This document shows positions 2,658 through 35,378 of a DNA stretch of 64,000 nucleotides, piece by piece. The notes beneath the pieces were generated by a model, which ran no database searches, was not told the DNA's origin, and worked only from the letters and a program-made list of their open reading frames with translations. A program made the position numbers and the translations under genes. Within the stretch, counting starts at the first letter, position 1, and every line of letters starts with the position of its first letter. The DNA is from an uncultured Verrucomicrobia subdivision 3 bacterium (lineage in GTDB: Bacteria > Verrucomicrobiota > Verrucomicrobiia > Limisphaerales > UBA11358), in the NCBI GenBank assembly GCA_903850425.1, contig CAINLR010000141.1, forward strand, positions 45,296-109,295. The letters are read 5' to 3'.

Positions 2658-4355
2658 TTACGCGCCCAGCATAGCGGTCGTTGGTAAAAAATCCACCTCG
2701 GCGCCGGCGGCGAGGGAACCTTGATTTACCGGCACGCGCAACAGCGCATTGGCCGCCGCGAAACACGTCACGTCGCCGGAACTCGCCCACGCCAGCGGCT
2801 GCAACCGGATTTCACCGCCGGAAAACTCCAGGCGCGCCGGCCAGAGCGTTTCGCGCGGATTGGGTTTGTCGTCCAACTTTGCCGCCAGCGTGCCGCGCAA
2901 AAACCGTGGTGCGGCCTCGCCCACCAACCTGGCCAGCGCCGTCGCGACGGCGAAATGAAAACAGACGAAATGGGATAGCGGATTACCCGGCAAGCCAAAC
3001 GCCACGCACGCACCCTGGACGCCGAAGATGAGCGGCTTGCCGGGGCGAAGATTCACGTGGGAAAAAACAATCTCAAACCCCAGGTGCTCCAGCAACGGGC
3101 GGGTAAAATCTTTGTCGCCCACGCTGGCACCGCCGGAGATCAGCACGACATCGGCATTTGAGATTGGAGATTGGAGATTGGAGATTGCTGCCCGCGCCAA
3201 CTCGAAGTCTTCGGGCAAATGCCGCTGCACGATCTCGCCGGGCCAAGGCTGCAGCAGGCTGCGGATCAAAATGGAATTGCTGTCGCGGATTTGTCCCGGT
3301 TGCGGTGTTTGCCCGGGCGGGATAATTTCATCCCCGGTGGTGAGATGGACGACGCGCAAACGCGGACTCACGAGCGGTTGCGCGCAGCCCGCCGTTGCGA
3401 GCAGCGCCAGTTTTCCCGCGTCCAGACGTGCCCCCGCTGGGACCAACAACTGACCGGCCTTCACGTCCTCCCCGCGCCGGCGGACGTTGGGGACGAGCTC
3501 GTTCCGCACAATGTTGATGCGGTCGCCCTCGCGCTCCACATGCTCCTGCATCACCACGCGCAGGCCGCCGCACGGCAGCGGAGCACCGGTCGCCACCCGC
3601 ACGGCTTCGCCGGCTCGGAGTTGACGCGGCTGCCAGCCGGCGGCGTGAATCGTATCCACCACATGAAAATATTCGGATGCGTCATCGGCCAAAACCGCAA
3701 AGCCGTCACGGCTGGAACAATCAAACGGCGGTAAATCTTCCGGCGCGCTCACCGCCTCGCGCAGCACACGCTCAAACGCCTCGGCGAGCGGCGCGGGCAC
3801 GGCGGGCAAGGGCTGACAGCGTGATTGAATTTCCGCGATGGCTTCGTCCAGCGAGCGGAGCGCGGGACCGGAGCCCGCAGCGGTTGGCCATGAACGATCA
3901 CCGGTCTTGGCTGCAGACTTCTGAACTTCCAACGTGCCGCGGGTCACCGCCCCGCGCTCCGGCTCGAGACTCGGCCACGCCCGCCGCTTCCAAATCGGCA
4001 CATCCTGTTTGAGGCGGTCCATGAATTCGCCCAGCAAGGCAATGGCTTCCGCGCGATGTTTTGCAGCGACGCCAACATAGATCGCCGCCTCGCCCACGGG
4101 GACCACGCCGATGCGATGGAGGATGCGGGCCGCCTGACACGGGTGCCGCGCGGCAAGGGTCTCCAACAGCCGCCGGATTTCGCGCACGGCCATTTCGGGA
4201 TAAGCCTCGTATTCGAGCGCCGCAATTTGCGCGCCGTTTTCCGCCGCGCGAACCACGCCGCGAAATTCCAGCCACGCCCCCAGCGGGCCGAGGTGCGGCG
4301 GGAGCGAAATCTTTTCTGCGATGGCCGCGCCGGTCAGTTGGATTTCAATTTCCAT
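2658..4355 (-). CDS. Fusion protein: molybdopterin synthase catalytic subunit (MoaE-like N-terminus) plus molybdopterin molybdenumtransferase (MoeA)
   Basis: The first ~125 aa are MoaE-like (LEYEAYPEMA...HRIGVVPVGEAAIYVGVAAKHRAEA...DVPIWKRR). The remainder is MoeA-like (SLDEAIAEI...DCSSRDGFAV...ISGGASVGDKDF...GLPGNPLS...). It is a single uninterrupted 565-aa ORF. Confidence 0.85.
   Translation of the reverse strand: MEIEIQLTGAAIAEKISLPPHLGPLGAWLEFRGVVRAAENGAQIAALEYEAYPEMAVREIRRLLETLAARHPCQAARILHRIGVVPVGEAAIYVGVAAKHRAEAIALLGEFMDRLKQDVPIWKRRAWPSLEPERGAVTRGTLEVQKSAAKTGDRSWPTAAGSGPALRSLDEAIAEIQSRCQPLPAVPAPLAEAFERVLREAVSAPEDLPPFDCSSRDGFAVLADDASEYFHVVDTIHAAGWQPRQLRAGEAVRVATGAPLPCGGLRVVMQEHVEREGDRINIVRNELVPNVRRRGEDVKAGQLLVPAGARLDAGKLALLATAGCAQPLVSPRLRVVHLTTGDEIIPPGQTPQPGQIRDSNSILIRSLLQPWPGEIVQRHLPEDFELARAAISNLQSPISNADVVLISGGASVGDKDFTRPLLEHLGFEIVFSHVNLRPGKPLIFGVQGACVAFGLPGNPLSHFVCFHFAVATALARLVGEAAPRFLRGTLAAKLDDKPNPRETLWPARLEFSGGEIRLQPLAWASSGDVTCFAAANALLRVPVNQGSLAAGAEVDFLPTTAMLGA
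3160..3187. repeat. Tandem heptad array (GAGATTG x4) inside the moeA coding region
   Basis: Direct reading of gagattggagattggagattggagattg. It is translated in the gene frame as ..ISNLQSPISN.. immediately before the conserved DVVLISGGASVGDKD block. Confidence 0.85.
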
Positions 4356-5232: not shown

Positions 5233-7064
5233 AAGCGCGCCTCCAGCTTCAATAAAATTTCTTTCAACGCGGATTTTTCCGCCAGCAAACTGGTCTGGGT
5301 TCCAGCGGCCGTGGCAAACGCCGCCGCATCGGCGACGGCGAAAAAGCGCCGGACGGTTTCGCCATCTCTTCCGGCGCACTCGGTCGTCGTGAGAATTTGC
5401 AGCACATCGCCACAAACCAAGGCGCGCGGGGTCGCGGGATAATGCGGTGCGGTAGCAATCTGCAAGGCACTGATGCCGCAACCAACAAAACCAGCGGCAT
5501 TGCCATTTTGCGCCGCGAGTTCCAGCGAACGCATTTCCCGCCGCAACGCGCGCCGCGCCAGGCGGCGCCGGATAATCTCGGGATGCTGTTCGAGAAACCG
5601 GCGGCGGCGATCCCACCACCACAGTCCGCAAAAGCCCAGCGCGGGCAGCAGTTGCACGAGCGGGAACCAGCCGCGCATTTGCAGCGGCACGAGGCTGCCC
5701 GCCGTCCAACCGGGCGTCGGCGCGAGTTTGCTCAAGCTGATTTTCGCCTCCGGCTCCGCGGTGTTTTCGGAAAGCATCAGCGCCAGGTCGGCATTCGTCA
5801 GCACGTCGCCCGCCAGCACCGAGATAGGCATCGGCGCGATGGAGAGGTCCACATATTTGCCAAGCGCCGGATCGAAACAACTGAACGGAATGGCCGGCGT
5901 GGCGCGCGGATCGGTGGTCAGCGGAATCAGATTGAATTGGAAACTGGCTCCGGGATTGGTGGTTCCCAGGCCGGGAACGATCGCGCCACGCACGGCGGGA
6001 AAAACCTGCCAGCCCGGCACGCGCGGCGGCGGCGGTGGATTGATCCGGCCCAGATTTTTTTCGCCGCGAATAACCACCGTGAGCAGCACCGGCTCGCCGA
6101 CTTTCAGCACGTTCGTGGCGAGGCTCGCCGGATCGCTCCGGTAGCGGCCGACCACGCCGGTGAAACCTGGCAATATGCTTTCGGTTGGCAGCGGACGAAC
6201 ATTGATCGTGACCGGTTCCGAATCGAGCAACAGCATGCTCGGCGGCCCGCCGGGAATGGTCACTTGGCCAGAAATGACAATCTGTCCCCCGAACTGATTG
6301 CCCGAGGTGAAGCCCTGCGCCGATAGTTTCAGCGGCCCGGAAGCAATCGGCGTGACGCTGGTGTCGTAAATGAACGCCGCGCCATTGCGACCATTTCCGC
6401 CGATCATCTGAATGGATTGGCGCACCGAATTTTTGTCCACCACAAAACTGTCGCCATTGAGCTGCACCTCGGACAATCCTTCGACCGCGCCGCCCGGACT
6501 CGACAGCAGCCGCACGCTGGCGTTGAAAACTTCACCCACGAAAACATTGGTGGCAGACGACTCAATGAGAAGTTGTCTGGCCTTCGTGTGCGGCTCCGGC
6601 AAGTCCGTTTTCACTTCCAATTGGGCCGCTGGCACCACCACCGGCTGGCCGTAAACTTCCACGGGAAATGCCGGAACGGTGAACTGCCCGGCCTCCGCCG
6701 CCCGGACTTCATAATCAAATGTGGCACACATTTGGTAAGAACCGGCGACGGATTGCATCGCCTGGCCGCTCGCGCTCAGATGGCATTTCAGAGGCGCCGG
6801 CAGCGGCAGCTTTTCCGGCCAGCTGACGGAAATGGCGGTCGCGTTGAACGTCACGCGATAAACGGCTTTTTCCCCCGGCTGAACCAGCGGTGGATCGAAT
6901 GACGCGGTGGCGGAAACCGGCGCGGAAATATTCACCGCCGGTTGCGACCGCACGATCTGAATCAACTGATCCGCCGTCGGGTTCACCAGCACTTGAGCGT
7001 GCGCGGTGGGAAATTGTCGTGCGGACAAAACCAGCAGCAGCACAATGAAAAAGTGGACACGCAT
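5229..7064 (-). CDS. BatD-like oxygen-tolerance protein
   Basis: Start chosen at MRVHFFIVLLLVLSA (signal peptide), 7 nt after the upstream stop. It is a large beta-rich periplasmic region with a C-terminal TM segment (WFPLVQLLPALGFCGLWWW). Its position in the operon after the TPR protein matches the canonical bat order. Confidence 0.65.
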   Translation of the reverse strand: MRVHFFIVLLLVLSARQFPTAHAQVLVNPTADQLIQIVRSQPAVNISAPVSATASFDPPLVQPGEKAVYRVTFNATAISVSWPEKLPLPAPLKCHLSASGQAMQSVAGSYQMCATFDYEVRAAEAGQFTVPAFPVEVYGQPVVVPAAQLEVKTDLPEPHTKARQLLIESSATNVFVGEVFNASVRLLSSPGGAVEGLSEVQLNGDSFVVDKNSVRQSIQMIGGNGRNGAAFIYDTSVTPIASGPLKLSAQGFTSGNQFGGQIVISGQVTIPGGPPSMLLLDSEPVTINVRPLPTESILPGFTGVVGRYRSDPASLATNVLKVGEPVLLTVVIRGEKNLGRINPPPPPRVPGWQVFPAVRGAIVPGLGTTNPGASFQFNLIPLTTDPRATPAIPFSCFDPALGKYVDLSIAPMPISVLAGDVLTNADLALMLSENTAEPEAKISLSKLAPTPGWTAGSLVPLQMRGWFPLVQLLPALGFCGLWWWDRRRRFLEQHPEIIRRRLARRALRREMRSLELAAQNGNAAGFVGCGISALQIATAPHYPATPRALVCGDVLQILTTTECAGRDGETVRRFFAVADAAAFATAAGTQTSLLAEKSALKEILLKLEARL

Positions 7065-7071
7065 ATTCTCG

Positions 7072-8013
7072 CTACCAGGTGCGCCCGGACCGGTCCTTGG
7101 GTTTGCCTGGTTCGCCCTGCCCCATCGGCAACTGCTTCCCATCGGGTTGAATTCCCATCATGATTTGTCCCGCTTGTTCGGGCGAAAGTTTCAAGCCCAT
7201 TTCCTGTCCGCCGCCGCCTTTGTCGGATTCCTCCTTGCCGCTCAATGATTCCGGCTTGGGCTTCTCGCCGCCATCATCATCTTCCTCCCCATCGTCACCG
7301 GGAGCGCCGGGCGGCATGTTCGGCGCGGGGATTTTTCCCTTCAACTGTTTCAACAATCCCTCCAGCTCGGCTTTTTTTCCATTCATGTTCGTCGCGGCCG
7401 ACTGCATCTCGCGCAGACTGTCCACCAGTTTGGCAATCGCCTGTGCCACGACCTCCGCATTTTTCACGGCATTGGTGTCGGCGGGATTCAGTTCGGCAGC
7501 ACTTTGAAAATCGCTGAGCGCGCGCCGCCATTTCGCCAGCGTTTTGCCATGTGCTTCCATGGCCTTTTTCACCGCCGCCGTCGCCGACTTCATTTCCTTG
7601 CGCACGCCACGACCAGCGACATACGCCTCGACCATCTGCTGGACATCGTTGCTCGCCAGCGCCTCAGCGGCCTTGTCCACCGCGCCCGCGCCCGCTTCCG
7701 TCGCAGCCCGGCTGCGTTTGGCGGTGCCTTCCGGGGATTTTTTCAACTCCTGTTTGCCTAGCGTGAAGCGCACATAGCCCAGATCGTAAAGCGCCTTGGG
7801 CGCGATCTTCTCCTCGCGCTGCTTGAGCGCGGTTTCCAACGCCGGTTCCGCCTCTTTCCAGTTTCCCGCGCGCATCTTTTCAATGCCAGCGTTGTAAAAA
7901 TCGCGGGCGGTTTCAGCTCGGGCGGCCGGGGAAGCAACGGGAACTTCGGCGTTGGTCACCACATTGGTAGCCGCCGAAACAGCGGGACAATTGAAGATGG
8001 AAAAAAGGAACAT
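7072..8013 (-). CDS. BatC-like TPR-domain protein (alternative start at 8121 would read through a palindromic repeat)
   Basis: MFLFSIFNCPAVSAA.. is a signal-like N-terminus. It is followed by a TPR-like segment (ARDFYNAGIEKMRAGNWKEAEPALETALK), coiled-coil and an acidic Gly-rich tail. The ATG at 8121 forms an ATGA overlap with the batB stop and is in the same frame. Confidence 0.6.
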   Translation of the reverse strand: MFLFSIFNCPAVSAATNVVTNAEVPVASPAARAETARDFYNAGIEKMRAGNWKEAEPALETALKQREEKIAPKALYDLGYVRFTLGKQELKKSPEGTAKRSRAATEAGAGAVDKAAEALASNDVQQMVEAYVAGRGVRKEMKSATAAVKKAMEAHGKTLAKWRRALSDFQSAAELNPADTNAVKNAEVVAQAIAKLVDSLREMQSAATNMNGKKAELEGLLKQLKGKIPAPNMPPGAPGDDGEEDDDGGEKPKPESLSGKEESDKGGGGQEMGLKLSPEQAGQIMMGIQPDGKQLPMGQGEPGKPKDRSGRTW

Positions 8014-8111
8014 CCAACATCCAACATCCAACACCCAACAACGAATGGCCGAGCGGCGTCCACCTGCGCCATGATTGGATATTCGATGTTGGATGTTCGA
8101 TGTTGGATGTT
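8009..8111. repeat. Palindromic GAT-heptad element A (arms 8009-8045 and 8076-8111)
   Basis: The left arm is aacatccaacatccaacatccaacacccaacaacgaa. The right arm is ttggatattcgatgttggatgttcgatgttggatgtt, the near reverse complement. The spacer is ~30 nt. Confidence 0.85.
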
Positions 8112-8117
8112 TCGCGT

Positions 8118-9146
8118 TCATGTCACTATTCCTTTTGCGCGTCGCGTGCCGATCAGCGATTCCACCACCAGCAGCAACAGCCCCGCCGCGACCGGCCAAT
8201 AGAATCGTTCCACGCCCCGACTATGCGTGCGCTGCAAACCCGCCGCGCGATCCAGAGTCTCCACTGCCGAGCGCACTTTCGCCAGTCCTTCGCCAAGTTG
8301 GCCCAGCGGAAAATAATTCCCACCGGTCGCCTGCGCGATGGCCGTCAGCGTTTTTTCATCCAACCGACTCACCACCGGCTCACCTTTGGCGTCGCGCACC
8401 AGTTCCATTTGGCCGACCGGATTCAACATTTGAATCTCGCTGCCCGCCGGCGAACCGAGGCCCACGGTGAAAACCACCACGCCGTTGGTGGCCAATGATT
8501 TCGCGGTTGCCACGCCACCTTTTTCCAGATCTTCGCCATCGGTCAGCAGCACGACGAGTTTGCGCCGGCTGTTTTTTTCCATCGCATGATTCGCCTCGCG
8601 GAGCGCCCGGCCGATGTCGGTGCCAGGGATGGGAATCGTTTTTTCATCCAAGGCTTGCAGCGCGGTTTCAAACGCATCGTAGTCCAACGTCAACGGGCAC
8701 TGCAAAAACGCGCTGCCCGCAAACCCGACCAAACCCACACGACCGCGGCCGTGCAAGCGGACAAAATCGTTGATGGCCAGCTTCGCACGCTGCAGCCGGT
8801 TGGGCCGGACATCCGTGGACAACATGCTGTAGGAACCATCGAGCACAAAGACCACATCCTCGCCAAGCCATTGGCTGCTGGACTTTAATTCGCCCCATTG
8901 CGGACGCGCCAGCGCCAGGCCGGCCAGCGCCAATGCGAGCAACAGCAAACCATTCTTGAATCGCCGCCGCGCCGGACTGTGCGACCTTGTGAGTTCTTCA
9001 ACGAAACGCGGCGAGGCGATTTGCGCCAGTTGCTGTTTGCGCTGCACCGCCGCGCGATGATGCAGCCACGCCAGCAACGCGGGCGCGACCACCGCGAGCA
9101 ACAGCCACTGCGGCGCTTCAAAATGCGGATGTGAAAAATCCATCAT
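8118..9146 (-). CDS. BatB-like von Willebrand factor A domain membrane protein
   Basis: 342 aa with two N-terminal TM helices. The VWA/MIDAS block is DVVFVLDGSYSMLSTDVRPNRLQRAK...VVLLTDGED, and there is a C-terminal TM helix. Confidence 0.85.
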   Translation of the reverse strand: MMDFSHPHFEAPQWLLLAVVAPALLAWLHHRAAVQRKQQLAQIASPRFVEELTRSHSPARRRFKNGLLLLALALAGLALARPQWGELKSSSQWLGEDVVFVLDGSYSMLSTDVRPNRLQRAKLAINDFVRLHGRGRVGLVGFAGSAFLQCPLTLDYDAFETALQALDEKTIPIPGTDIGRALREANHAMEKNSRRKLVVLLTDGEDLEKGGVATAKSLATNGVVVFTVGLGSPAGSEIQMLNPVGQMELVRDAKGEPVVSRLDEKTLTAIAQATGGNYFPLGQLGEGLAKVRSAVETLDRAAGLQRTHSRGVERFYWPVAAGLLLLVVESLIGTRRAKGIVT

Positions 9147-9206: not shown

Positions 9207-9310
9207 TGGAAAAGCGGCGGAGGGCCGCCGCAGTCCAAGACGCTTCGCGCGGGTCGCGGCGTCTGAAAACGCCACGCGTCTTGGACTGCGCCAGCCCTCT
9301 GGCACTTTGT
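9207..9310. repeat. REP doublet (inverted pair of the gcagtccaagacgc-type unit)
   Basis: ggaaaagcggcggagggccgccgcagtccaagacgcttcgcgcg...cgcgtcttggactgcgccagccctctggc. The two halves are reverse complements. The same unit flanks the RAYT gene at 35.3-36.1 kb. Confidence 0.8.
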
Positions 9311-9380
9311 GCGAGATACGAACGCCCACGAAATATCCGCTCGAACCCAAGCACGCCCTGCAATGGCAAAGCCTGATTCC

Positions 9381-9415
9381 AAATCGTAAATCGTAAATCG
9401 CAAATCATAAATGCT
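9381..9415. repeat. Tandem heptad array (AAATCGT-type x5) in the batA-batB spacer
   Basis: Direct reading: aaatcgt aaatcgt aaatcgc aaatcat aaatgct. The reverse complement gives GATTTAC/GATTTGC heptads. Confidence 0.8.
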
Positions 9416-10456
9416 TCATGGCACGCGGCGATAACGTGTGTTGGCCAAAATCAACTCCAGCGCGAGCAAGCTCACCGCCGCCAGCAGCGGCCAGTGAAAC
9501 AGCGGCTCGTAAGTCGCATACCGCTTGATTTTGACCTCGGTTTTCTCCAGTTGATCAATCTGGTTGTAAATATTCAGCAACTCGCGCCGGTTAGTCGCGC
9601 GATAAAATTTCCCATGCGACAGGTCCGCCATTTTGCCGAGCACGGAATAATTCGCCGGCTGCAACAACAGCGTCGGAATGACATTGCCATTGGCATCGAG
9701 TTTTAGTTTTCCCGTGGCGGGATCGAACGCCGGCATGTAACACGGTTTCTCAATGCCGATGCCGATGGTGTAAATCTTCGACCCCACGGCGGCGGCCAGT
9801 TGCGCGGCCGGGAAGGGTTCGATCTCGCCTTTGTTGTTATCGCCATCGGTCAGCAAAATAATGACGCGGCTCTTGCTGTTCGGCACAGCCTTGAGGCGCT
9901 TGGCCGCAACCACAATCGCATCGCCGATGGCCGTGCCCAGATCGCCAATCGTGCCGACGTGCAGCCGGTGTAAGTTCTCGGCGAGCCAGTCGTGGTTCAG
10001 GGTCAGCGGGCTGGCGAGATAGGGCACGCCCGAGAAAACGACCAACCCAATGCGATCATTGGGCCTCTTGTGGATGAAATCGCCCAGCACCTCGTCGGCA
10101 ATGTCGAAGCGCGTCACTTTTTCGCTGGGCGCACCCATGTCTATCGCCGCCATGGACCACGACAGATCCAGCACGAGCATGATGTCAATGCCCGGTGTCT
10201 CGGTTTCAACGTGGTGGTTCGCCAGTCGTGGCCCGGCCAAAGTCACAATGCCCAGCGCGACCACGAGCAGCCGCAGAAAAATTAAAATCCGTCCCGGTGC
10301 CGCCTTGGCTTTGGCTCCCGCGGCGCGTGCAATCTCCGCGCTGGAAAACTTCAGCGCCGAGAACGTGCCAACCTTTCCGCGCAGCAACGCATAGATCGGC
10401 AATAGCGCGAGCAGGCTGAGCAACCACGGATATTCAAATTCAAAATTCTCCATCAT
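9416..10456 (-). CDS. BatA-like von Willebrand factor A domain membrane protein
   Basis: 346 aa with N-terminal TM helices. The VWA block is DIMLVLDLSWSMAAIDM...RVIILLTDGDNNKGE, and there is a C-terminal TM helix. It has a 4-nt overlap with the upstream gene. Confidence 0.85.
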   Translation of the reverse strand: MMENFEFEYPWLLSLLALLPIYALLRGKVGTFSALKFSSAEIARAAGAKAKAAPGRILIFLRLLVVALGIVTLAGPRLANHHVETETPGIDIMLVLDLSWSMAAIDMGAPSEKVTRFDIADEVLGDFIHKRPNDRIGLVVFSGVPYLASPLTLNHDWLAENLHRLHVGTIGDLGTAIGDAIVVAAKRLKAVPNSKSRVIILLTDGDNNKGEIEPFPAAQLAAAVGSKIYTIGIGIEKPCYMPAFDPATGKLKLDANGNVIPTLLLQPANYSVLGKMADLSHGKFYRATNRRELLNIYNQIDQLEKTEVKIKRYATYEPLFHWPLLAAVSLLALELILANTRYRRVP

Positions 10457-11148
10457 GCGCGCCGGCCTTGAGTTGAGGTTGCGGCCAAAGGCCGGAGTTG
10501 CGCCCGCCGCTGCTCGGCGCGCTCGATCAAATTCAACGCCTGATCTACGGCCTTGATTGGGACTGAAGCTGTCGCCGATGAAAACTTTTGCGCGTCACAG
10601 GCGCGCAAGAAATCAATCGCCGTCACGGCAAGCTCCGCGCCTATTTGGTCGCGGCCGGAAAGCAGCCGACCGAATTCGGCGGTGGTGAATTCGCCCGCCG
10701 GCAGTTGAAAGGCCGCGATGAAATAATGGCGGACGACCTGAGAGACGCGACTGAGAATCGCGCCGTCCTCCGGCTGCTGTCGCAGGCTTGCCAACGCCTG
10801 GCGAACTTGTTCTTCGGGAGAAATAATGTTTTTTGATTGGGAACGGCCGATCAGCCAGAGGACCAGCGCCATTACAACAATCGCAGCAAGCCCCACTAAA
10901 ATCATAGAACTTGCATGCTGCTCGACGAACGTGGGCGGCAACTCGCCATAAGGTGGCAATAACTTCAACGGGCCACTTTTATCGGCCGCGCCGGTCTGGC
11001 CATGAAGCGGTCGTGTGATAAGAAGAAGCAAAATCATCAAGGGAAACATCCCACAACGAACATCCCACAACGAACATCCACTCAAGCCAAGGCGCGTGGG
11101 CGTTGGCTGTTGGATGTTCGTTGTTGGATGTTGGATGTTTTTCATCAT
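10453..11148 (-). CDS. Small membrane protein in the DUF4381 position of bat operons (alternative start at 11049)
   Basis: It sits between the DUF58 and batA genes. It has one TM helix (MILVGLAAIVVMALVLWLIG) followed by a helical tail. The first 33 codons are read through palindromic element B. An internal MFPLMILLLL start lies at 11049. Confidence 0.55.
   Translation of the reverse strand: MMKNIQHPTTNIQQPTPTRLGLSGCSLWDVRCGMFPLMILLLLITRPLHGQTGAADKSGPLKLLPPYGELPPTFVEQHASSMILVGLAAIVVMALVLWLIGRSQSKNIISPEEQVRQALASLRQQPEDGAILSRVSQVVRHYFIAAFQLPAGEFTTAEFGRLLSGRDQIGAELAVTAIDFLRACDAQKFSSATASVPIKAVDQALNLIERAEQRRAQLRPLAATSTQGRRA
11045..11139. repeat. Palindromic GAT-heptad element B (arms 11045-11080 and 11108-11139)
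   Basis: The left arm is aacatcccacaacgaacatcccacaacgaacatcca and the right arm is tgttggatgttcgttgttggatgttggatgtt. It has the same architecture as element A. Confidence 0.85.
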
Positions 11149-12101
11149 TACCGACGCCTCCGGCCCCGGCGGATTTCAAAAAACCGCTGCAGGGTTTGAG
11201 CAAACGGTTCGACCGTGTTCAGCCGCAAGGTATCCACCGCGGTGCGGTTCAACGACTGGTCCAGTTGCTCCAATCGTTCTTCGTTAATCGAAGCGAAGCG
11301 ATTGCGGACTGCGCTGCGACTGGAGTCCAGTTCGAGGATTTCGCCCGTCTCGGCATCTTCAATCGTGAGCAATCCGGCATCCGGCAACTGACTTTCGCGC
11401 GGATCGTGCAGATGCAAGCAGACCAGATCGTGCCGCGCGTTCGTGATCCCGAGTTCTTGGATGACGTCGCGCCCCCTCAGCCCGCCCCTTTCGCCATCCG
11501 ATGGGGAGAGGCTGGCGAAGCCGGGTGCGGGGTTCGTCGCGCTGTGCAAAAAATCCGTAAGCAGAAAAACAATCGAGCGGCGCGGCAAGGTGTGATTCAA
11601 AAACGCCAGGGCAGCGGGAATATCCGTGCCGCGCTTCTTCGGCGTGAAGGCGAGCATTTCGCGGACGATGCGCAAAATATGGCGACGGCCTTTGCGCGGC
11701 GGAATGAACAATTCCACCGACTCGGTGAACAGCAGCAGCGCGACTTTATCGCCGTTGCGCGTGGCGGAAAGCGCGAGCGTGGCGGCGACCTCGGCGGCGT
11801 ATTCGCGTTTGGAACGATCGCCCGAACCGAAGGCTGATGAGCCGGAGACATCCACCGCCAGCACGGCGGCGAGTTCGCGTTCCTCGCGGAAGCGTTTCAC
11901 GAATGGCCGGCCCATGCGATGGGTGACGTTCCAGTCGATGTCGCGCACATCGTCGCCCGGGATGTATTCGCGCAACTCCTCGAAGTCCATGCCGCGCCCC
12001 TTGAAATGGCTCAAGTAGGCGCCCACCATCGTGTCGTTGACGAGGCGATTGGTGCGCAACTCCACGCGGCGGACGGTTTCCAAGAGTTCAGTGATTGTCA
12101 T
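11148..12101 (-). CDS. DUF58 family protein (MoxR-associated, VWA-like)
   Basis: Start set at MTITELLETVRRVELRTNRL.., matching the start of the duplicated fragment at 19315. Motifs present are YIPGDDVRDIDWNVTHR and LAVDVSGS. The 34 extra N-terminal codons in the track ORF are unsupported. Confidence 0.85.
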   Translation of the reverse strand: MTITELLETVRRVELRTNRLVNDTMVGAYLSHFKGRGMDFEELREYIPGDDVRDIDWNVTHRMGRPFVKRFREERELAAVLAVDVSGSSAFGSGDRSKREYAAEVAATLALSATRNGDKVALLLFTESVELFIPPRKGRRHILRIVREMLAFTPKKRGTDIPAALAFLNHTLPRRSIVFLLTDFLHSATNPAPGFASLSPSDGERGGLRGRDVIQELGITNARHDLVCLHLHDPRESQLPDAGLLTIEDAETGEILELDSSRSAVRNRFASINEERLEQLDQSLNRTAVDTLRLNTVEPFAQTLQRFFEIRRGRRRR

Positions 12102-12616
12102 TGGGAAACGCAATAAACCCCAGGCAAACACTGTGGTTCTGCGAAGCTTTGCCGTTTGGGCAAACCTGTGCAAAAACCGGCATAACGGGGCAAAGAAGGG
12201 CAAAGAAAGGGGCCAAGGGTTTGCACCCGTTCAATTCCCGATCAGTTGTTTCTGCCGATGACATTTTGCGATATTGTTGGCCGAACGTTGCTATCACGTC
12301 GAGCTTCATTCGGCATATTTTCAGCCATTAAACGACGCGTGTCCACACCGATGCTTTGCATGGCTAAAAACACCGAGAATGAGCTGGTGAGGCACGACAC
12401 AGCCCTCGCCAAAAAATAGCGAGCGGCGGTCTTGCGAGCGCTTGGGCGGAATAGTCTCGATCTTAGCCGGTGCGGAAAGGATCAGACCTGGATTTGCCGC
12501 TTTGGCCGGAAGCGGACCAGCGGCGTGATCTGATCACGCACCGCCTGCTTAATTACGCCCGTGCATTTGCCAGCCGAGCGCTATTTTCACTGGCACACCC
12601 AGATGTCAAATCCCGG

Positions 12617-24459: not shown

Positions 24460-26496
24460 ATGAACCGCATCCGGCTTCTTTCCGAACAGGTCGCCAACCA
24501 GATCGCCGCCGGCGAAGTGGTGGAGCGTCCGGCCAGCGTCGTCAAGGAACTCGTGGAAAACTCGCTCGATGCTGACGCTCGGAAAATCACCGTTGAAATC
24601 GGCGCGGGCGGGCGCAGCCTCATCCGCATCACGGACGATGGTTTTGGCATGAGCCGCGACGACGCTTTGCTTTGCCTCGAACGCCACGCCACCAGTAAAA
24701 TTCAGAAAGCTGAGGATCTCGCGTCCATCGCCACCATGGGTTTTCGGGGCGAAGCCGTGCCCAGCATTGCCAGCGTCAGCCGCTTCACGCTCACCACGCG
24801 CGAGCGCGACAACCCTTCCCCCGAAGGCACGCAAATCATCATCAACGGCGGCACCATTGCCGAGGTGAAGGCCGCCGGCAGCGCCCCCGGCACGAGCGTG
24901 GAAGTGCGCCAGTTGTTTTTCAATCTGCCCGCGCGCCGGAAATTTTTGCGCACGGAAGAAACCGAGGCTGCGCACATCCAGCACTATCTCACGCTGGCGG
25001 CGCTGGCGTTTCCCGAAGTCGCGTTCACTTTTGTCAAAGACGGCCGCAACGTCTGGCAATTGCCCGCCGTCAAATCCGGCGCGGCCACCTCCAGCCGCAT
25101 CGCGGCCTTGCGCGAACGCCTCCGCGCGTTGCTCGGGGATGAAAAACTGGTGCCCGTCAATTTTTCCGCCGCGCTCGACGACGACAATGCTGCCACGCCG
25201 GACGAGGCGGACATTTTTGAAACCGCCTCGCCGGAAAAGCCAGCGGCCGAGCAAATCTCAAATCTCAAATCTCACATCCGCGTCTGGGGACTGATCGGTT
25301 CGCCCGGCGTCTCGCGGGCAACCCGCGACGGCCAGTTCGTTTTCGTCAACCGCCGGCCCGTTGAAAATCGCGGCGTCAACTACGCGTTGATCGAGGGTTA
25401 TCATAATTCGCTGATGAAAGGCCGTTATCCGGTCTGCTGCCTGTTCCTCGAAATTGATCCCGCCGCCGTGGACGTGAACATCCACCCGGCCAAGCGCGAG
25501 GTGAAATTCCACCGCGAATTTGAAGTGCGGAAATTCGTGGCGCAGGCCGTGCATGAGGCGCTGCTCGCCTTTCATTCCGAGCCGGAAAAATCAAGCATCA
25601 AGCCCGGTGTCGAGACGCCGCACGCACATAGCCACCAACTGGAACATCCGCAAATCATTCCGCCCCAGCCCGCGCCCACACCGGCCGCGCCGCCAAATCC
25701 TCCGGCACCGTTCCAACCAGCGCCTGTCATTCCGGCTCAAATAGCCGCACCCGCCGCGCAAACACCTTTGAAAATGGGTTTCTCGCTGTCACCGGCGAAA
25801 GCCGAACCAGCAACGAACGCGGTGGACATGCCCTCGGCACCCGGCTATCCGCCCGCCGCAATTCCCCATCCAGCCGCCAGCCTCCCGCTGCCCGGAGCCA
25901 CGCCGTTGCTGAACGTCCCGCTCCGCCTCGTCGGCGTGGTCGGCAAACTCTATGTGCTGCTGGAATCAGATCGCGGCCTGGTGCTGCTCGACCAGCACGC
26001 GGCGCACGAGCGGATTTTGTTTGAGCAAATGTTGAACCGACTTGAAGAACAGGGGACGACGCCCTCGCAGAAATTGCTGCTGCCGGAGACCATCGAGCTG
26101 CCGCCGCGCGACGCCCAGTTCCTGCGCGAGCAGCTCACCGCGCTCACGCGGCTCGGCGTCGGCTTGAGCGAATTTGGCGAACGGACCTTTCTCCTTGATG
26201 CCCTGCCGCCGTTCGTCAAGGTGCCGGACGCGCGCCGGTTTGTGTTCGATCTGGTGGATGAACTGCGCGCCGCCGGGCGCGAAGTGAATCTCGCGCGGCT
26301 CGGCGAACACACCGTGGCCAAGACCGTCTGCCGCCATGCCGTGAAGGCCAACGACCCGCTGGGCGGCGCGGAACTGGAAAATCTCGTGGCAGATTTGCGC
26401 CGCTGCGCGATGCCTTACACCTGCCCGCACGGCCGCCCGACCTTGATTGAGATGAATTACCGTGAACTGGAGAAAAAGTTTGGCCGGGTGCAATAG
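24460..26496 (+). CDS. mutL: DNA mismatch repair protein MutL
   Basis: IRLLSEQVANQIAAGEVVERPASVVKELVENSLDA...DDGFGM; the C-terminal dimerisation domain contains LLDQHAAHERILFE and CPHGRPT. Confidence 0.92.
   Translation: MNRIRLLSEQVANQIAAGEVVERPASVVKELVENSLDADARKITVEIGAGGRSLIRITDDGFGMSRDDALLCLERHATSKIQKAEDLASIATMGFRGEAVPSIASVSRFTLTTRERDNPSPEGTQIIINGGTIAEVKAAGSAPGTSVEVRQLFFNLPARRKFLRTEETEAAHIQHYLTLAALAFPEVAFTFVKDGRNVWQLPAVKSGAATSSRIAALRERLRALLGDEKLVPVNFSAALDDDNAATPDEADIFETASPEKPAAEQISNLKSHIRVWGLIGSPGVSRATRDGQFVFVNRRPVENRGVNYALIEGYHNSLMKGRYPVCCLFLEIDPAAVDVNIHPAKREVKFHREFEVRKFVAQAVHEALLAFHSEPEKSSIKPGVETPHAHSHQLEHPQIIPPQPAPTPAAPPNPPAPFQPAPVIPAQIAAPAAQTPLKMGFSLSPAKAEPATNAVDMPSAPGYPPAAIPHPAASLPLPGATPLLNVPLRLVGVVGKLYVLLESDRGLVLLDQHAAHERILFEQMLNRLEEQGTTPSQKLLLPETIELPPRDAQFLREQLTALTRLGVGLSEFGERTFLLDALPPFVKVPDARRFVFDLVDELRAAGREVNLARLGEHTVAKTVCRHAVKANDPLGGAELENLVADLRRCAMPYTCPHGRPTLIEMNYRELEKKFGRVQ
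25252..25279. repeat. Tandem heptad array (CAAATCT x3 plus CACATCC) inside mutL
   Basis: Direct reading: caaatct caaatct caaatct cacatcc. It is translated as ..QISNLKSHI.. in a low-complexity stretch of mutL just upstream of the conserved GQFVFVNRRPVE block. The reverse complement gives GATGTGA GATTTGA GATTTGA GATTTG. Confidence 0.85.
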
Positions 26497-30936: not shown

Positions 30937-32241
30937 TCAAGCAGAAAGCAACTGCCGCAGCCACTCCAACCCCTGCGTCGCCGTCACCTCCTTGAAGGTG
31001 AGGCGATCCCAAGCATTCAAATATCTTCTCACCGCCACGCCGCCAGCCGAGGCCAGCGCGATGAAAACCGTCCCCACCGGTTTGTCCGCCGTGCCGCCGC
31101 CCGGCCCGGCGATCCCGGTGATCGCCACCGCCAGGTCCGCCCCGAATTGCTGCCGCGCGCCCGCTGCCATTTCCCGCGCAACCACTTCGCTCACCGCGCC
31201 ATGCGCGGCGAGCGATGCGGACCGAACCCCGAGAAATGTTGCTTTTGCCGCATTGCTGTAGCACACCACGCCGCCGAGAAAAACCGCGGATGCGCCCGGC
31301 ACATTCGTGAGCCGCTGCGCCATGTTTCCGCCGGTGCAGGATTCCGCCAACGCCAGTGTTTGCTTCTTTTGCGCCAGAAGTTTGACGACCACGGTTTCAA
31401 TTTCATCGTCGTCGAAACCAAAAATAGTTGCGCCGAGATTCTTCCGCGCCACGGCCTCGCCCGCACGGACGAGGTCCTCCGCCCCCAGCCCGCTGGCGGT
31501 CAGCCGCACGTCTACCGCGCCGGGCCGCGCACAATAGCCGACTTCCAAGCCGGCCTTCACCAGCGGTTGTAAATCGCTTTCCACCTTCTCCTGCACGCTC
31601 GATTCGCCGACGCCGGTGGTCCGCAAGGTGCGGCAGACAAAAATCTCCCTGACAAATTCACGCTTCAGCCAAGGCGCAATCGAATCATCAAACATCGGCC
31701 GCAGTTCGCGGGGCGGGCCGGGCAGCATCACGAGCCATTTTGGGGAAGCAGATGGCAGATGGGAGATGGTAGGTGGGGAGGTTTCAGCCCCAACTCCCAG
31801 CTTCCAACTTCCATTTCCTATTTTCATCGCCAGTCCCGGCGCGGTTCCATTTTGATTCAGGAAAACCAGCGCGCCTTCGGGCACAAACGTTTCCACACTG
31901 GTTTTCGCCGGGCGCGGACGATTCCGCCTCGCAAAAAAGTTTTCGATATGCGCGAGCACCGCCTGGTTCTCAATCAGCTTTTTGCCGAGCAGTTCGGCGA
32001 TGAGTTCGCGCGTGATGTCGTCCGAGGTCGGACCGAGACCGCCGGTGGTGATGACCAGATCCGCGCGGCTCAAGGCTTCGCGCACGGCCTGCTGGATTTC
32101 GTGGCCGGTGTCGCCAATGGCCACCTGCCGCGTGACGACGTGGCCGAGATCGGCGAGGCGGCGGCAAAGCCATTGCTGATGCGTGTTCAGGACGCGGCCG
32201 AGCATCAGTTCGCTGCCGGTGTTGACGAGTTCGACGTTCAT
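30937..32241 (-). CDS. cinA: CinA-family protein (MoCF-like N-domain plus nicotinamide-nucleotide amidase-like C-domain)
   Basis: Start set at MNVELVNTGSELMLGRVLNTHQ. Conserved blocks are ITTGGLGPTSDDITRE and ESCTGG. The 13 extra codons in the track ORF are unsupported. The gene contains an in-frame palindromic repeat at 31745-31826. Confidence 0.85.
   Translation of the reverse strand: MNVELVNTGSELMLGRVLNTHQQWLCRRLADLGHVVTRQVAIGDTGHEIQQAVREALSRADLVITTGGLGPTSDDITRELIAELLGKKLIENQAVLAHIENFFARRNRPRPAKTSVETFVPEGALVFLNQNGTAPGLAMKIGNGSWKLGVGAETSPPTISHLPSASPKWLVMLPGPPRELRPMFDDSIAPWLKREFVREIFVCRTLRTTGVGESSVQEKVESDLQPLVKAGLEVGYCARPGAVDVRLTASGLGAEDLVRAGEAVARKNLGATIFGFDDDEIETVVVKLLAQKKQTLALAESCTGGNMAQRLTNVPGASAVFLGGVVCYSNAAKATFLGVRSASLAAHGAVSEVVAREMAAGARQQFGADLAVAITGIAGPGGGTADKPVGTVFIALASAGGVAVRRYLNAWDRLTFKEVTATQGLEWLRQLLSA
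31745..31826. repeat. Imperfect palindromic GAT-heptad element C inside the cinA coding region
   Basis: The left arm is gcagatg gcagatg ggagatg gtaggtg ggg. The right arm is ccccaactcccagcttccaacttccatttcc. About 5 of 7 positions per heptad are complementary by hand alignment. It is translated as ..KIGNGSWKLGVGAETSPPTISHLPSASPKW.. Confidence 0.7.
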
Positions 32242-32254
32242 AAAACTCCCAGAA

Positions 32255-32323
32255 GAAACCACGAAATACACAAAACACACGAAAGAAAATTTCTTTTTCG
32301 TGTCGTTCGCGGGTTTCGTGGAT
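32255..32323. repeat. A/C-rich palindromic element in the cinA upstream region
   Basis: gaaaccacgaaatacacaaaacacacgaaagaaaa|tttctttttcgtgtcgttcgcgggtttcgtgg. The inner stem pairs acacgaaagaaa with tttctttttcgtgt, and the outer pair is ccacgaaa/tttcgtgg. Confidence 0.7.
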
Positions 32324-35269: not shown

Positions 35270-35378
35270 TAAAAAGCGGTAGAGGGCTACCGCAGTCCAA
35301 GACGCTTTCGCGCGCGCGTGGGTCGTCGTCATTCGCGCCAGCGTCTTGGACTGCGCCAGCCCCCTGGCGCTTTTCCAT
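35270..35378. repeat. REP doublet downstream of the RAYT gene
   Basis: agagggctaccgcagtccaagacgctttcgcgcgc...gcgccagcgtcttggactgcgccagccccctggcgcttttcca. The two halves form an inverted pair. Confidence 0.8.

Follow-up and report, generated by a model that had tools for sequence, protein, structure and literature searches.

How does an operon of tightly joined genes come to hold a long palindrome of tandem heptads between a stop codon and the next signal peptide, and what becomes of the joint? The question is raised by a window of 64,000 nucleotides (nt), by which we mean the whole stretch of DNA analyzed, from contig CAINLR010000141.1 (assembly GCA_903850425.1) of an uncultured Verrucomicrobia subdivision 3 bacterium. 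In this window a palindrome of about 95 nt, here named element B, occupies the joint between a DUF58 gene and a DUF4381-like gene, the latter a member of a MoxR-DUF58-x-BatA-BatB-BatC-BatD operon. The reading that we consider probable, with real doubt attached to it as a whole, is that element B would be a translated palindromic heptad element belonging to a lineage-wide family that colonizes co-directional stop/start joints.

Both partners of the joint are encoded on the minus strand. The DUF58 gene (11148..12203; Pfam PF01882, E=1.8e-72) lies on the 5' side and ends in a TAA stop (11150-11148) that shares a base with an ATG (11148-11146), forming a TAATG overlap at 11146..11150 that is directly followed by a second ATG (11145-11143). 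A Shine-Dalgarno-like (SD-like) GGAGG motif is found 8 nt 5' of the ATG, at 11157..11161, within the codons for the DUF58 C-terminal RRGRRRR. The DUF4381-like gene (10453..11148) encodes 231 amino acids (translation of the open reading frame (ORF) 11148..10453: MMKNIQHPTTNIQQPTPTRLGLSGCSLWDVRCGMFPLMILLLL), and its protein scores 22.2 bits against PF14316, under the family cutoff. Element B (11045..11139), delimited by an arm search and RNA folding, begins 3-9 nt past the overlap and the 231-amino-acid ORF is open throughout it. In the sense of the mRNA, the 5' arm (11096..11139) consists of five to six AACATCC-like units and encodes KNIQHPTTNIQQPT, the central loop (11082..11095) is GC-rich, unique and different in every copy, and the 3' arm (11045..11081) consists of five GGATGTT/CGTTGTG units and encodes SGCSLWDVRCGMF. 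The arms at 11045-11081 and 11096-11132 are 84% complementary over 37 nt, with an extra outer heptad reaching 11139. The predicted RNA fold has an energy of -55.9 kcal/mol compared to -35.2 +/- 3.8 kcal/mol for shuffled sequences (z = -5.4), and none of the 200 shuffles matched it. An internal in-frame ATG without an SD-like motif (11047..11049, codon 34) is located in the last GGATGTT heptad; after it come the hydrophobic core and the c-region (10996..11046) of what is probably a cleavable signal peptide (FPLMILLLLITRPLHG, with putative cleavage before Q).

A second copy of the same family and layout, element A, is found at the BatB/BatC joint (8009..8111, minus strand), on the 3' side of an ATGA in which the BatB stop overlaps the BatC start (8118..8121, minus strand). 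It reads through in frame as MNAKHPTSNIQHRISN...CWVLDVGCWMFLFSIF, its hairpin has a z of -6.0 and there is an ATG in its last heptad. The window contains 18 copies of GGATGTT, where 8.05 would be expected. None of 100 shuffles reached this count, and eleven of the 18 copies lie inside elements A and B. The original prediction described this arrangement accurately: its coordinates and sequences for element B were all correct, the overlap, palindrome, in-frame read-through and last-heptad ATG are all present, and the two joints do share one layout, element A behind ATGA and element B behind TAATG. A scan of the window against Rfam at gathering thresholds returned two tRNAs only and no family at the heptad elements, and E-value thresholds yielded only generic microRNA-precursor look-alikes with 19-27 bits against cutoffs of 50-100 bits.

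The origin of element B was addressed through its orthologues. A protein search returned 107 homologues of the 231-amino-acid ORF, about forty of which have a heptad-type N-terminus (MKxNIQHSTFNIQRRR..GRWKLNVQCSMFPLAILF) and about thirty of which have 209 amino acids and begin with a short signal peptide of the usual kind (MKNKFHSTRRVWVATF...); the remaining ones are partly annotated as starting at the internal methionine. At the DNA level, 26 orthologous operons from metagenome-assembled genomes of Limisphaerales and Verrucomicrobia subdivision 3 were compared, with 27 operons in the census of joints, and the MoxR-DUF58-Bat operon is conserved in 27 genomes. The heptads at the DUF58/next-gene joint are AACATCC in the window, AACATTC in L003, L004 and L007, AACATCG in L001 and L010, AACAACC in L002, ACGAATG/CATTCGT in L021, CCGAAAT/ATTTCGG in L014 and L026, and GGCAGAA-type in L006, L009, L011, L012 and L020, while L005, L015, L023 and L025 have a repeat-free joint. 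At least eight heptad families with one common architecture were found, and the single consensus element that an alignment of elements A and B was expected to yield does not exist. Ancestral coding sequence had been expected to reveal itself by the same N-terminal extension in orthologues that lack any repeat. The repeat-free orthologues (L015, L023, L005, L025 and L149/L150) have short N-termini unrelated to the extension, with no extension shared, and element B is, as far as orthologous sequence can tell, an inserted element and not ancestral coding sequence, as had been proposed.

Empty sites, which had been suggested as a means to define the insertion, were found at orthologous joints in the form of ATGA overlaps and repeat-free DUF58/next-gene joints. 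The operon of L149/L150, without any repeat, has 4-nt or 1-nt overlaps at nearly all joints, and the ATGA overlap is the ancestral state, seen between the DUF4381-like gene and BatA in 17 loci and between BatA and BatB in 13 of the 27 operons. At the filled joints 5' of BatA and BatB, the first array begins 2-8 nt past the TGA (in simple one-hairpin fills) and the last array stops 0-28 nt short of the ATG. The retained ATG there is usually out of continuity with the BatA/BatB frame; these hairpins are intergenic and the start lies 3' of the hairpin. The N-termini of BatA and BatB are a conserved membrane domain (PF07584). BatC and BatD have signal-peptide starts like the DUF4381-like gene, and all hairpins at the BatB>BatC and BatC>BatD joints are in frame, with M(K/R)x on one side and the hydrophobic core on the other. 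The suggestion that selection favors elements which leave coupling intact agrees with this distribution, with in-frame copies in permissive signal-peptide N-termini and intergenic copies before BatA and BatB.

Several other features were observed at these joints. The DUF4381-like start in L149/L150 (4001-4030), ATGAGAAATAAATTTTATTTCACG, holds a small A/T palindrome (GAAATAAA/TTTTATTTC), and BatC of the same operon (6691-6740) begins MRMKNFQKCF; both starts could be relics of lost hairpins or seeds of new ones. Other repeat families are nested in frame in the hairpin loops of the orthologues P0045, P0056 and P0017 (..SGDTSPHSK.., ..PSPQPSPRLGGERE.. and ..HGRDDRAT..). The DUF58/next-gene gap of L022 (315-839) measures 524 nt and contains several nested repeats, with the gene frame still open over about 175 codons. 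Direct, non-palindromic GACTTTA/GCCTTTA arrays occur 5-10 nt 5' of the BatA start in L009 (6763-6790), L014 (3322-3346) and L026 (6731-6763) and resemble the arrays of TAACTGA that Beggiatoaceae have upstream of start codons.

What is kept in the hairpin was examined by comparing mean pairwise identity at the three codon positions in 12 orthologues (66 pairs). The hairpin (codons 4-33) has identities of 0.73, 0.69 and 0.72 at positions 1, 2 and 3, with an amino-acid identity of 0.52. The corresponding values are 0.72, 0.81 and 0.51 for the signal-peptide core (amino-acid identity 0.60) and 0.74, 0.80 and 0.53 for the mature protein (0.63). The profile is flat in the hairpin against the usual coding pattern in the signal core and mature protein, and third positions in the hairpin are not less conserved than the first two, as selection on amino acids would require. 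The same is seen between the window and its closest relative L147 (75% amino-acid identity), with 0.86 at all three positions in the hairpin and 0.88, 0.87 and 0.75 in the gene body. An alignment of twelve 108-nt stretches gave a consensus stem of 27 pairs in which 93.2% of the cells hold standard pairs, compared to 23-40% with slid partner columns. Changes on both sides of the stem were found in 17 cells against 6.7 +/- 2.6 in shuffles, none of 500 reaching the observed number, and joint switches from C-G to U-A occur at three heptad positions. Judged from these alignments, the sequence of element B is kept at the nucleotide level, as palindrome and heptad identity, and not at the amino-acid level.

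The start codon in use can be narrowed down by the same loci. In 23 of 25 loci, with gaps of 71-524 nt, no stop interrupts the gene frame between the gene and a start codon located -4..+8 nt from the DUF58 stop; the other two frames across the same gaps are open in eight and thirteen loci. Over 1,497 codons, five stops were found in the gene frame, four of which are an alignment artefact in L023, against 40 and 19 in the other frames. An SD-like motif is present 5-18 nt 5' of the upstream start in 21 of 24 loci and before the internal ATG in none of six. The upstream motif (GGAGG/GGAGA) is encoded by the conserved DUF58 C-terminus RRGRRR(G/R) (11151-11171 in the window; L002-L026), the conservation of which may reflect an SD-like role for the next gene. 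The internal codon specifies methionine in 29 of the 40 heptad-class orthologues, leucine in six, threonine in three and valine in two, and the CCGAAAT-type heptads of L014 and the heptads of L009 at the same joint contain no ATG at all. The last-heptad codon has index 33 in 24 of the 40 proteins, and three proteins are shorter by exactly seven codons (three heptads), lengths that a frame constraint on a 7-nt repeat predicts. We conclude that the 33-codon N-terminal extension is probably translated from the stop-overlapping start and that the internal ATG at 11049, put forward earlier as an element-borne start, is probably not the true start, given the absence of SD-like motifs before it, the other codons in eleven of 40 orthologues and the ATG-less heptads. 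In translated hairpins of the AACATTC type (L003, 1002-1028; proteins with ..WKLNVQCSMF..), the 3' arm is CAATGTT and not the perfect complement GAATGTT; tandem GAATGTT would make TGA stops, whereas CAATGTT leaves a periodic C·C mismatch, and the choice looks like stop avoidance outranking pairing.

Element B belongs to a family with many other settings. A pattern scan of metagenome contigs, in which copies were selected for the inverted heptad arrangement, gave at least 120 loci of the AACATCC hairpin, one of which, among the matches listed, is in the bat operon setting. As the palindrome is open in all six frames and ORF-based context is therefore unusable, the strands of the flanks were called with a codon log-odds model trained on the genes of the window. 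The following figures also hold among the matches listed. Both flanks were callable for 45 hairpins, 43 of which are co-directional, one convergent and one divergent (binomial p ~3e-4 given 75% expected). The first heptad is found 1-34 nt (median 9) past the upstream stop in 39 of 43 independent co-directional contexts, where the arrays have a median span of 96 nt; elements of the family as a whole measure about 50-110 nt. The claim that the layout goes beyond chance holds on this placement and on the frame kept in 23 of 25 bat loci. The next in-frame start is the ATG of the last heptad in nine of 35 cases, which is the chance rate of one third, and otherwise lies 5-42 nt (median 13) beyond the hairpin.

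The copies share weak ends (GRR...YYC) and GC-rich loops that are unique, differ even within one genome and are often bordered by CCAATG..CATTGG; the arms are often unequal in unit number, and intergenic copies differ in how many units an arm holds. A scan of 117 copies gave flanking direct repeats of 0-3 nt and no consistent target duplication, and a target-site preference, also raised in the original prediction, could not be shown with such flanks and with unique loops. There was no sense-strand bias in G·U pairs (154 sense, 146 antisense; p = 0.84) or in folding energy (sense favored in 48 copies, antisense in 32; p = 0.16). This lack of strand asymmetry gives no sign that the sense RNA, rather than a DNA palindrome, is kept, and a claim of selection on sense RNA structure was dropped for that reason. 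The AACATCC hairpin pattern had no matches in the viral contigs scanned. No description of heptad repeats in Verrucomicrobia was found in the searchable literature, and the elements apparently form a large undescribed repeat family in one group of soil and peat Verrucomicrobia.

Closest to them in architecture and placement are two sets of heptameric repeats, GGGAATC in Xanthomonas and GGGGAYT in Nostoc, which occur at many loci, mostly intergenic between ORFs of the same direction and within about 50 bp of the upstream stop; they include 70-75 inverted pairs per genome with potential stem-loops, and are transcribed, with function unknown (Rehm et al. 2015, PMC4692102). The present elements are alike in having period-7 arrays in both inverted arms, stem-loops (z = -5.4 and -6.0) and, among the matches listed, co-directional flanks in 43 of 45 cases at a median of 9 nt past the stop. 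They differ in that GGATGTT/AACATCC has no GGG and forms no G-quadruplex, whereas the Xanthomonas and Nostoc units are rich in G and drew study for forming G-quadruplexes; in that the inverted arrangement is the rule and several heptad families share one architecture in another phylum; and in having copies embedded, without a break of frame, in 5' coding regions and in genes for enzymes. For in-frame translation the closest known system is that of the Rickettsia palindromic elements, palindromic repeats inserted in frame in protein genes, translated and tolerated by the protein (PMC10969869, PMC3733652). Copies of the heptad elements are likewise in frame in the DUF4381-like gene, BatC, BatD and CinA. 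However, the Rickettsia elements are about 100-150 bp long with a family consensus, are restricted to Rickettsia and are not concentrated at stop/start joints, whereas those described here are built of tandem heptads, a composition which makes sequence homology to the Rickettsia consensus unlikely. The TAACTGA heptamers of Beggiatoaceae, cyanobacteria and Bacteroidetes and the cyanobacterial short tandemly repeated repetitive (STRR) sequences are tandem repeats found in numerous intergenic places, often within a few nt of starts and with 7-nt length steps (PMC4679880). The TAACTGA repeats are nearly all direct (one inverted set in 170), unlike the palindromes abutting the upstream stop found here.

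Transcribed hairpins between co-transcribed genes are also formed by repetitive extragenic palindromic (REP) sequences and bacterial interspersed mosaic elements (BIME), by ERIC (enterobacterial repetitive intergenic consensus) sequences and by Correia/NEMIS elements, with effects through RNase III or RNase E cleavage and mRNA stabilization. The heptad elements, of 50-110 nt with heptad arrays as arms and GRR...YYC ends, are unlike REP/BIME units of 20-40 bp with a terminal GTAG or CGTC. They are also unlike miniature transposable elements with inverted repeats (MITEs) such as ERIC and Correia in having no terminal inverted repeats round a conserved core, unique loops, no target duplication and microsatellite-like arms. 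No gene for a REP-associated tyrosine transposase (RAYT; Y1 transposase) was seen in the window, where no systematic search was made for one. An integron attC site likewise forms an imperfect palindrome directly past the stops of co-directional genes, and ATCCAAC/GTTGGAT agree, as it happens, with the attC core consensus, RYYYAAC/GTTRRRY. This candidate was rejected: the other heptad families do not fit the consensus, the units are tandem, the setting is a conserved operon and not a cassette array, and no intI or attI was seen. A CsrA site, suggested by GGAUGU within the SELEX (systematic evolution of ligands by exponential enrichment) consensus RUACARGGAUGU, was set aside because other heptad families have no GGA.

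A course of events consistent with these observations can be outlined. The unit of the family, two inverted 7-nt arrays round a unique GC-rich center, is found at tight joints in Limisphaerales-type Verrucomicrobia, and the ancestral joint would have been a stop/start overlap with its Shine-Dalgarno motif inside the DUF58 C-terminal codons. Element B would have come to sit past the upstream start, where it separates the 'MK' n-region from the signal peptide's hydrophobic core, and may survive there because it is stop-free, has a length that is a multiple of three and lies in a dispensable, probably cleaved segment. The outcome would be its translation as a 33-amino-acid extension of the signal-peptide n-region. 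With a stem about 9 nt past the start codon, binding of free 30S subunits would be hindered and initiation would depend on the ribosome that terminates DUF58, so that coupling would be preserved or even enforced and not broken. Palindromy and heptad identity are plausibly upheld by a DNA-level process such as arm-to-arm conversion or slippage, as the absence of strand bias suggests. In-frame copies are tolerated elsewhere in the window as well, in CinA, MoeA and MutL.

Several points weigh against this reading. The shuffles used for stem covariation ignore shared ancestry, and orthologous hairpins share descent, so that the independent frame-preserving events are few, an estimated 6-8 or so. 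AACATCC/GGATGTT is stop-free in all frames on both strands; part of the open-frame signal therefore comes free, and the real signal lies in the loops, the nested inserts and the lengths. An in-frame stop inside the loop of L026 means that at least one lineage starts 3' of its hairpin. The codon model behind the strand calls was right for 61 of 70 held-out ORFs (about 87%). Finally, co-directional flanks in 43 of 45 cases exceed what simple tolerance would give, which hints at function or targeting, and so strong a bias keeps explanations of either kind alive.

The alternative that survives best, although we regard it as unlikely, is a selected operon device, in which the hairpin would be RNA punctuation that tunes cistron expression through coupling, mRNA processing or stabilization, possibly with a dedicated heptad-binding protein, and would be neither selfish nor neutral. 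The co-directional bias, with hairpins tight against stop and start, speaks for such a device, and in Beggiatoaceae a role as regulator sites has been put forward for heptamer arrays by start codons (PMC4679880). A hairpin with covarying arms has also been retained although the mature protein averages only 63% identity, with third codon positions at 0.72 against 0.53 in the gene body. Against it, there is no excess of G·U over A·C on the sense strand and no strand asymmetry in energy, the hairpins are patchy at orthologous joints and built from differing heptads at the same one, copies also occur within the enzyme genes CinA, MoeA and MutL, and no Rfam family matches. Also rather doubtful in our estimate is a lineage-specific cistron-joining system in which the hairpin would juxtapose stop and start so that terminating ribosomes re-initiate across or through it, its symmetry being kept by a dedicated heptad-specific DNA or RNA activity. 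Such a system would account for three traits of the family, namely flanks that are almost always co-directional, a small set of heptads and loops that are unique.

It is also rather improbable that the element is an untranslated intercistronic RNA hairpin, with the last-heptad ATG at 11049 as the true start, sequestered by the stem until an upstream ribosome or an RNase III cut of the 35-45 bp stem exposes it, and with an open frame that is incidental. Most family members are truly intergenic with the order stop, hairpin, start, the ATG does lie at the base of the stem with an internal methionine in 29 of 40 orthologues, L026 must start 3' of its hairpin, and long perfect stems are RNase III substrates, as in Correia elements (PMC10969869). 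Against it, the frame is kept in 23 of 25 loci over gaps of 71-524 nt, and an SD-like motif accompanies the upstream start but not the internal ATG, which is itself missing in 11 of 40 orthologues and in the ATG-less heptads of L014 and L009; elsewhere in the family the last-heptad ATG occurs only at its chance rate.

A transposon-derived MITE or REP with a preferred target beside stops, for example ATGA, is about as hard to credit. One heptad family is indeed found at 120 or more unrelated loci, filled BatA>BatB joints have ..CCATGA on the left and again before the BatB start (L001, L021 and the window), and element B is flanked by a TGATGA on either side, the two being 108 nt apart. A duplicated ATGA is, however, needed anyway for a stop plus a start, and the CCATGA and TGATGA pairs may reflect that same need. 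The lack of a consistent target duplication (0-3 nt), the loops unique within a genome, the often unequal arms, ends that are only GRR/YYC without a GTAG or CGTC tag, and the absence of copies from the viral contigs scanned all argue against a mobile element of this type.

Very unlikely is a phase-variation switch, in which a 7-nt unit more or less would change the downstream frame and so turn the gene on or off. Seven is not a multiple of three, the arrays are at the 5' end of an ORF, a region which according to the discussion in PMC4692102 is enriched in simple repeats used for phase variation, and arm copy number varies among intergenic copies. Yet among 40 orthologues the extension either keeps one length or departs from it by exactly 21 nt, slippage is suppressed by the imperfection of the arrays here, and the consensus assemblies are 'on' in 23 of 25 loci. 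The chance that the element is ancestral coding sequence or an intrinsic terminator is slight indeed. The ORF is continuous, and the stem is preceded by an A-run and followed by a short T-run, but the extension is absent from repeat-free orthologues, conservation is flat over the three codon positions and the site lies inside a conserved operon. A terminator was also ruled out on structure, as the stem is 35-45 bp and A/U-rich and is followed by T2-4 and then CC, where a terminator would have a short GC-rich stem and a U-run of at least five, and a terminator scan called no site at element A or B.

Further repeats were found in the window. A third heptad palindrome (31748-31830; z = -3.0) lies in the CinA gene (30937..32280, minus strand) with a GCAGATG-type arm against a CCAACTTCC-type arm; it is in frame within the MoCF domain, at the exact site of a 25-amino-acid insertion (NGSWKLGVGAETSPPTISHLPSASP) relative to PDB 4uux. 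Four plus-strand copies of GGAGATT (3155-3190) in the MoaE-MoeA fusion gene (2658..4355, minus strand) encode ISNLQSPISN in frame, immediately 5' of the conserved DVVLISGG motif of MoeA, and three copies of AAATCTC (25250-25279) are in frame within the coding sequence of MutL (24460..26496, plus strand; ..EQISNLKSHIR..). A one-armed array of three ATTTACG units (9380-9407, minus strand) is located a few nt 3' of the BatA stop (9418-9416). ATTTACG arrays recur at the BatA>BatB joint of three loci; the partner arm is CGTAAAT in L004 and L024 and degenerate in L001, and the same joint is an empty ATGA overlap in L002 and L003. A different palindrome family of about 100 nt has two copies, one in the BatA/BatB spacer (9211-9308) and one at 35272-35374, with the cores GCAGTCCAAGACGC / GCGTCTTGGACTGC, and a palindrome with 31-nt arms (CCACGAAATACACAAAACACACGAAAG..; 32259-32321) overlaps the beginning of the ORF for CinA (start 32280).

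These elements also bear on annotation. Gene callers disagree on the start of the DUF4381-like gene (231, 209 or about 198 amino acids), and many pseudo-motifs of the form 'NIQHPTSNIQ...LDVGCWMF' in the databases are translated repeats. For the biology of the group, the bat-operon series amounts to a natural experiment in which a hairpin landed on overlapping joints, the same joints being empty (ATGA) or filled with different heptads. Where the next gene has a permissive signal-peptide N-terminus, the insert stays in frame and would be translated, and before conserved N-termini a new start would be used past the hairpin. Heptameric repeats have been reported in Xanthomonas, cyanobacteria and Beggiatoaceae, and with the present elements the spread of particular heptamers to hundreds of loci, and a possible role in translation, become testable.

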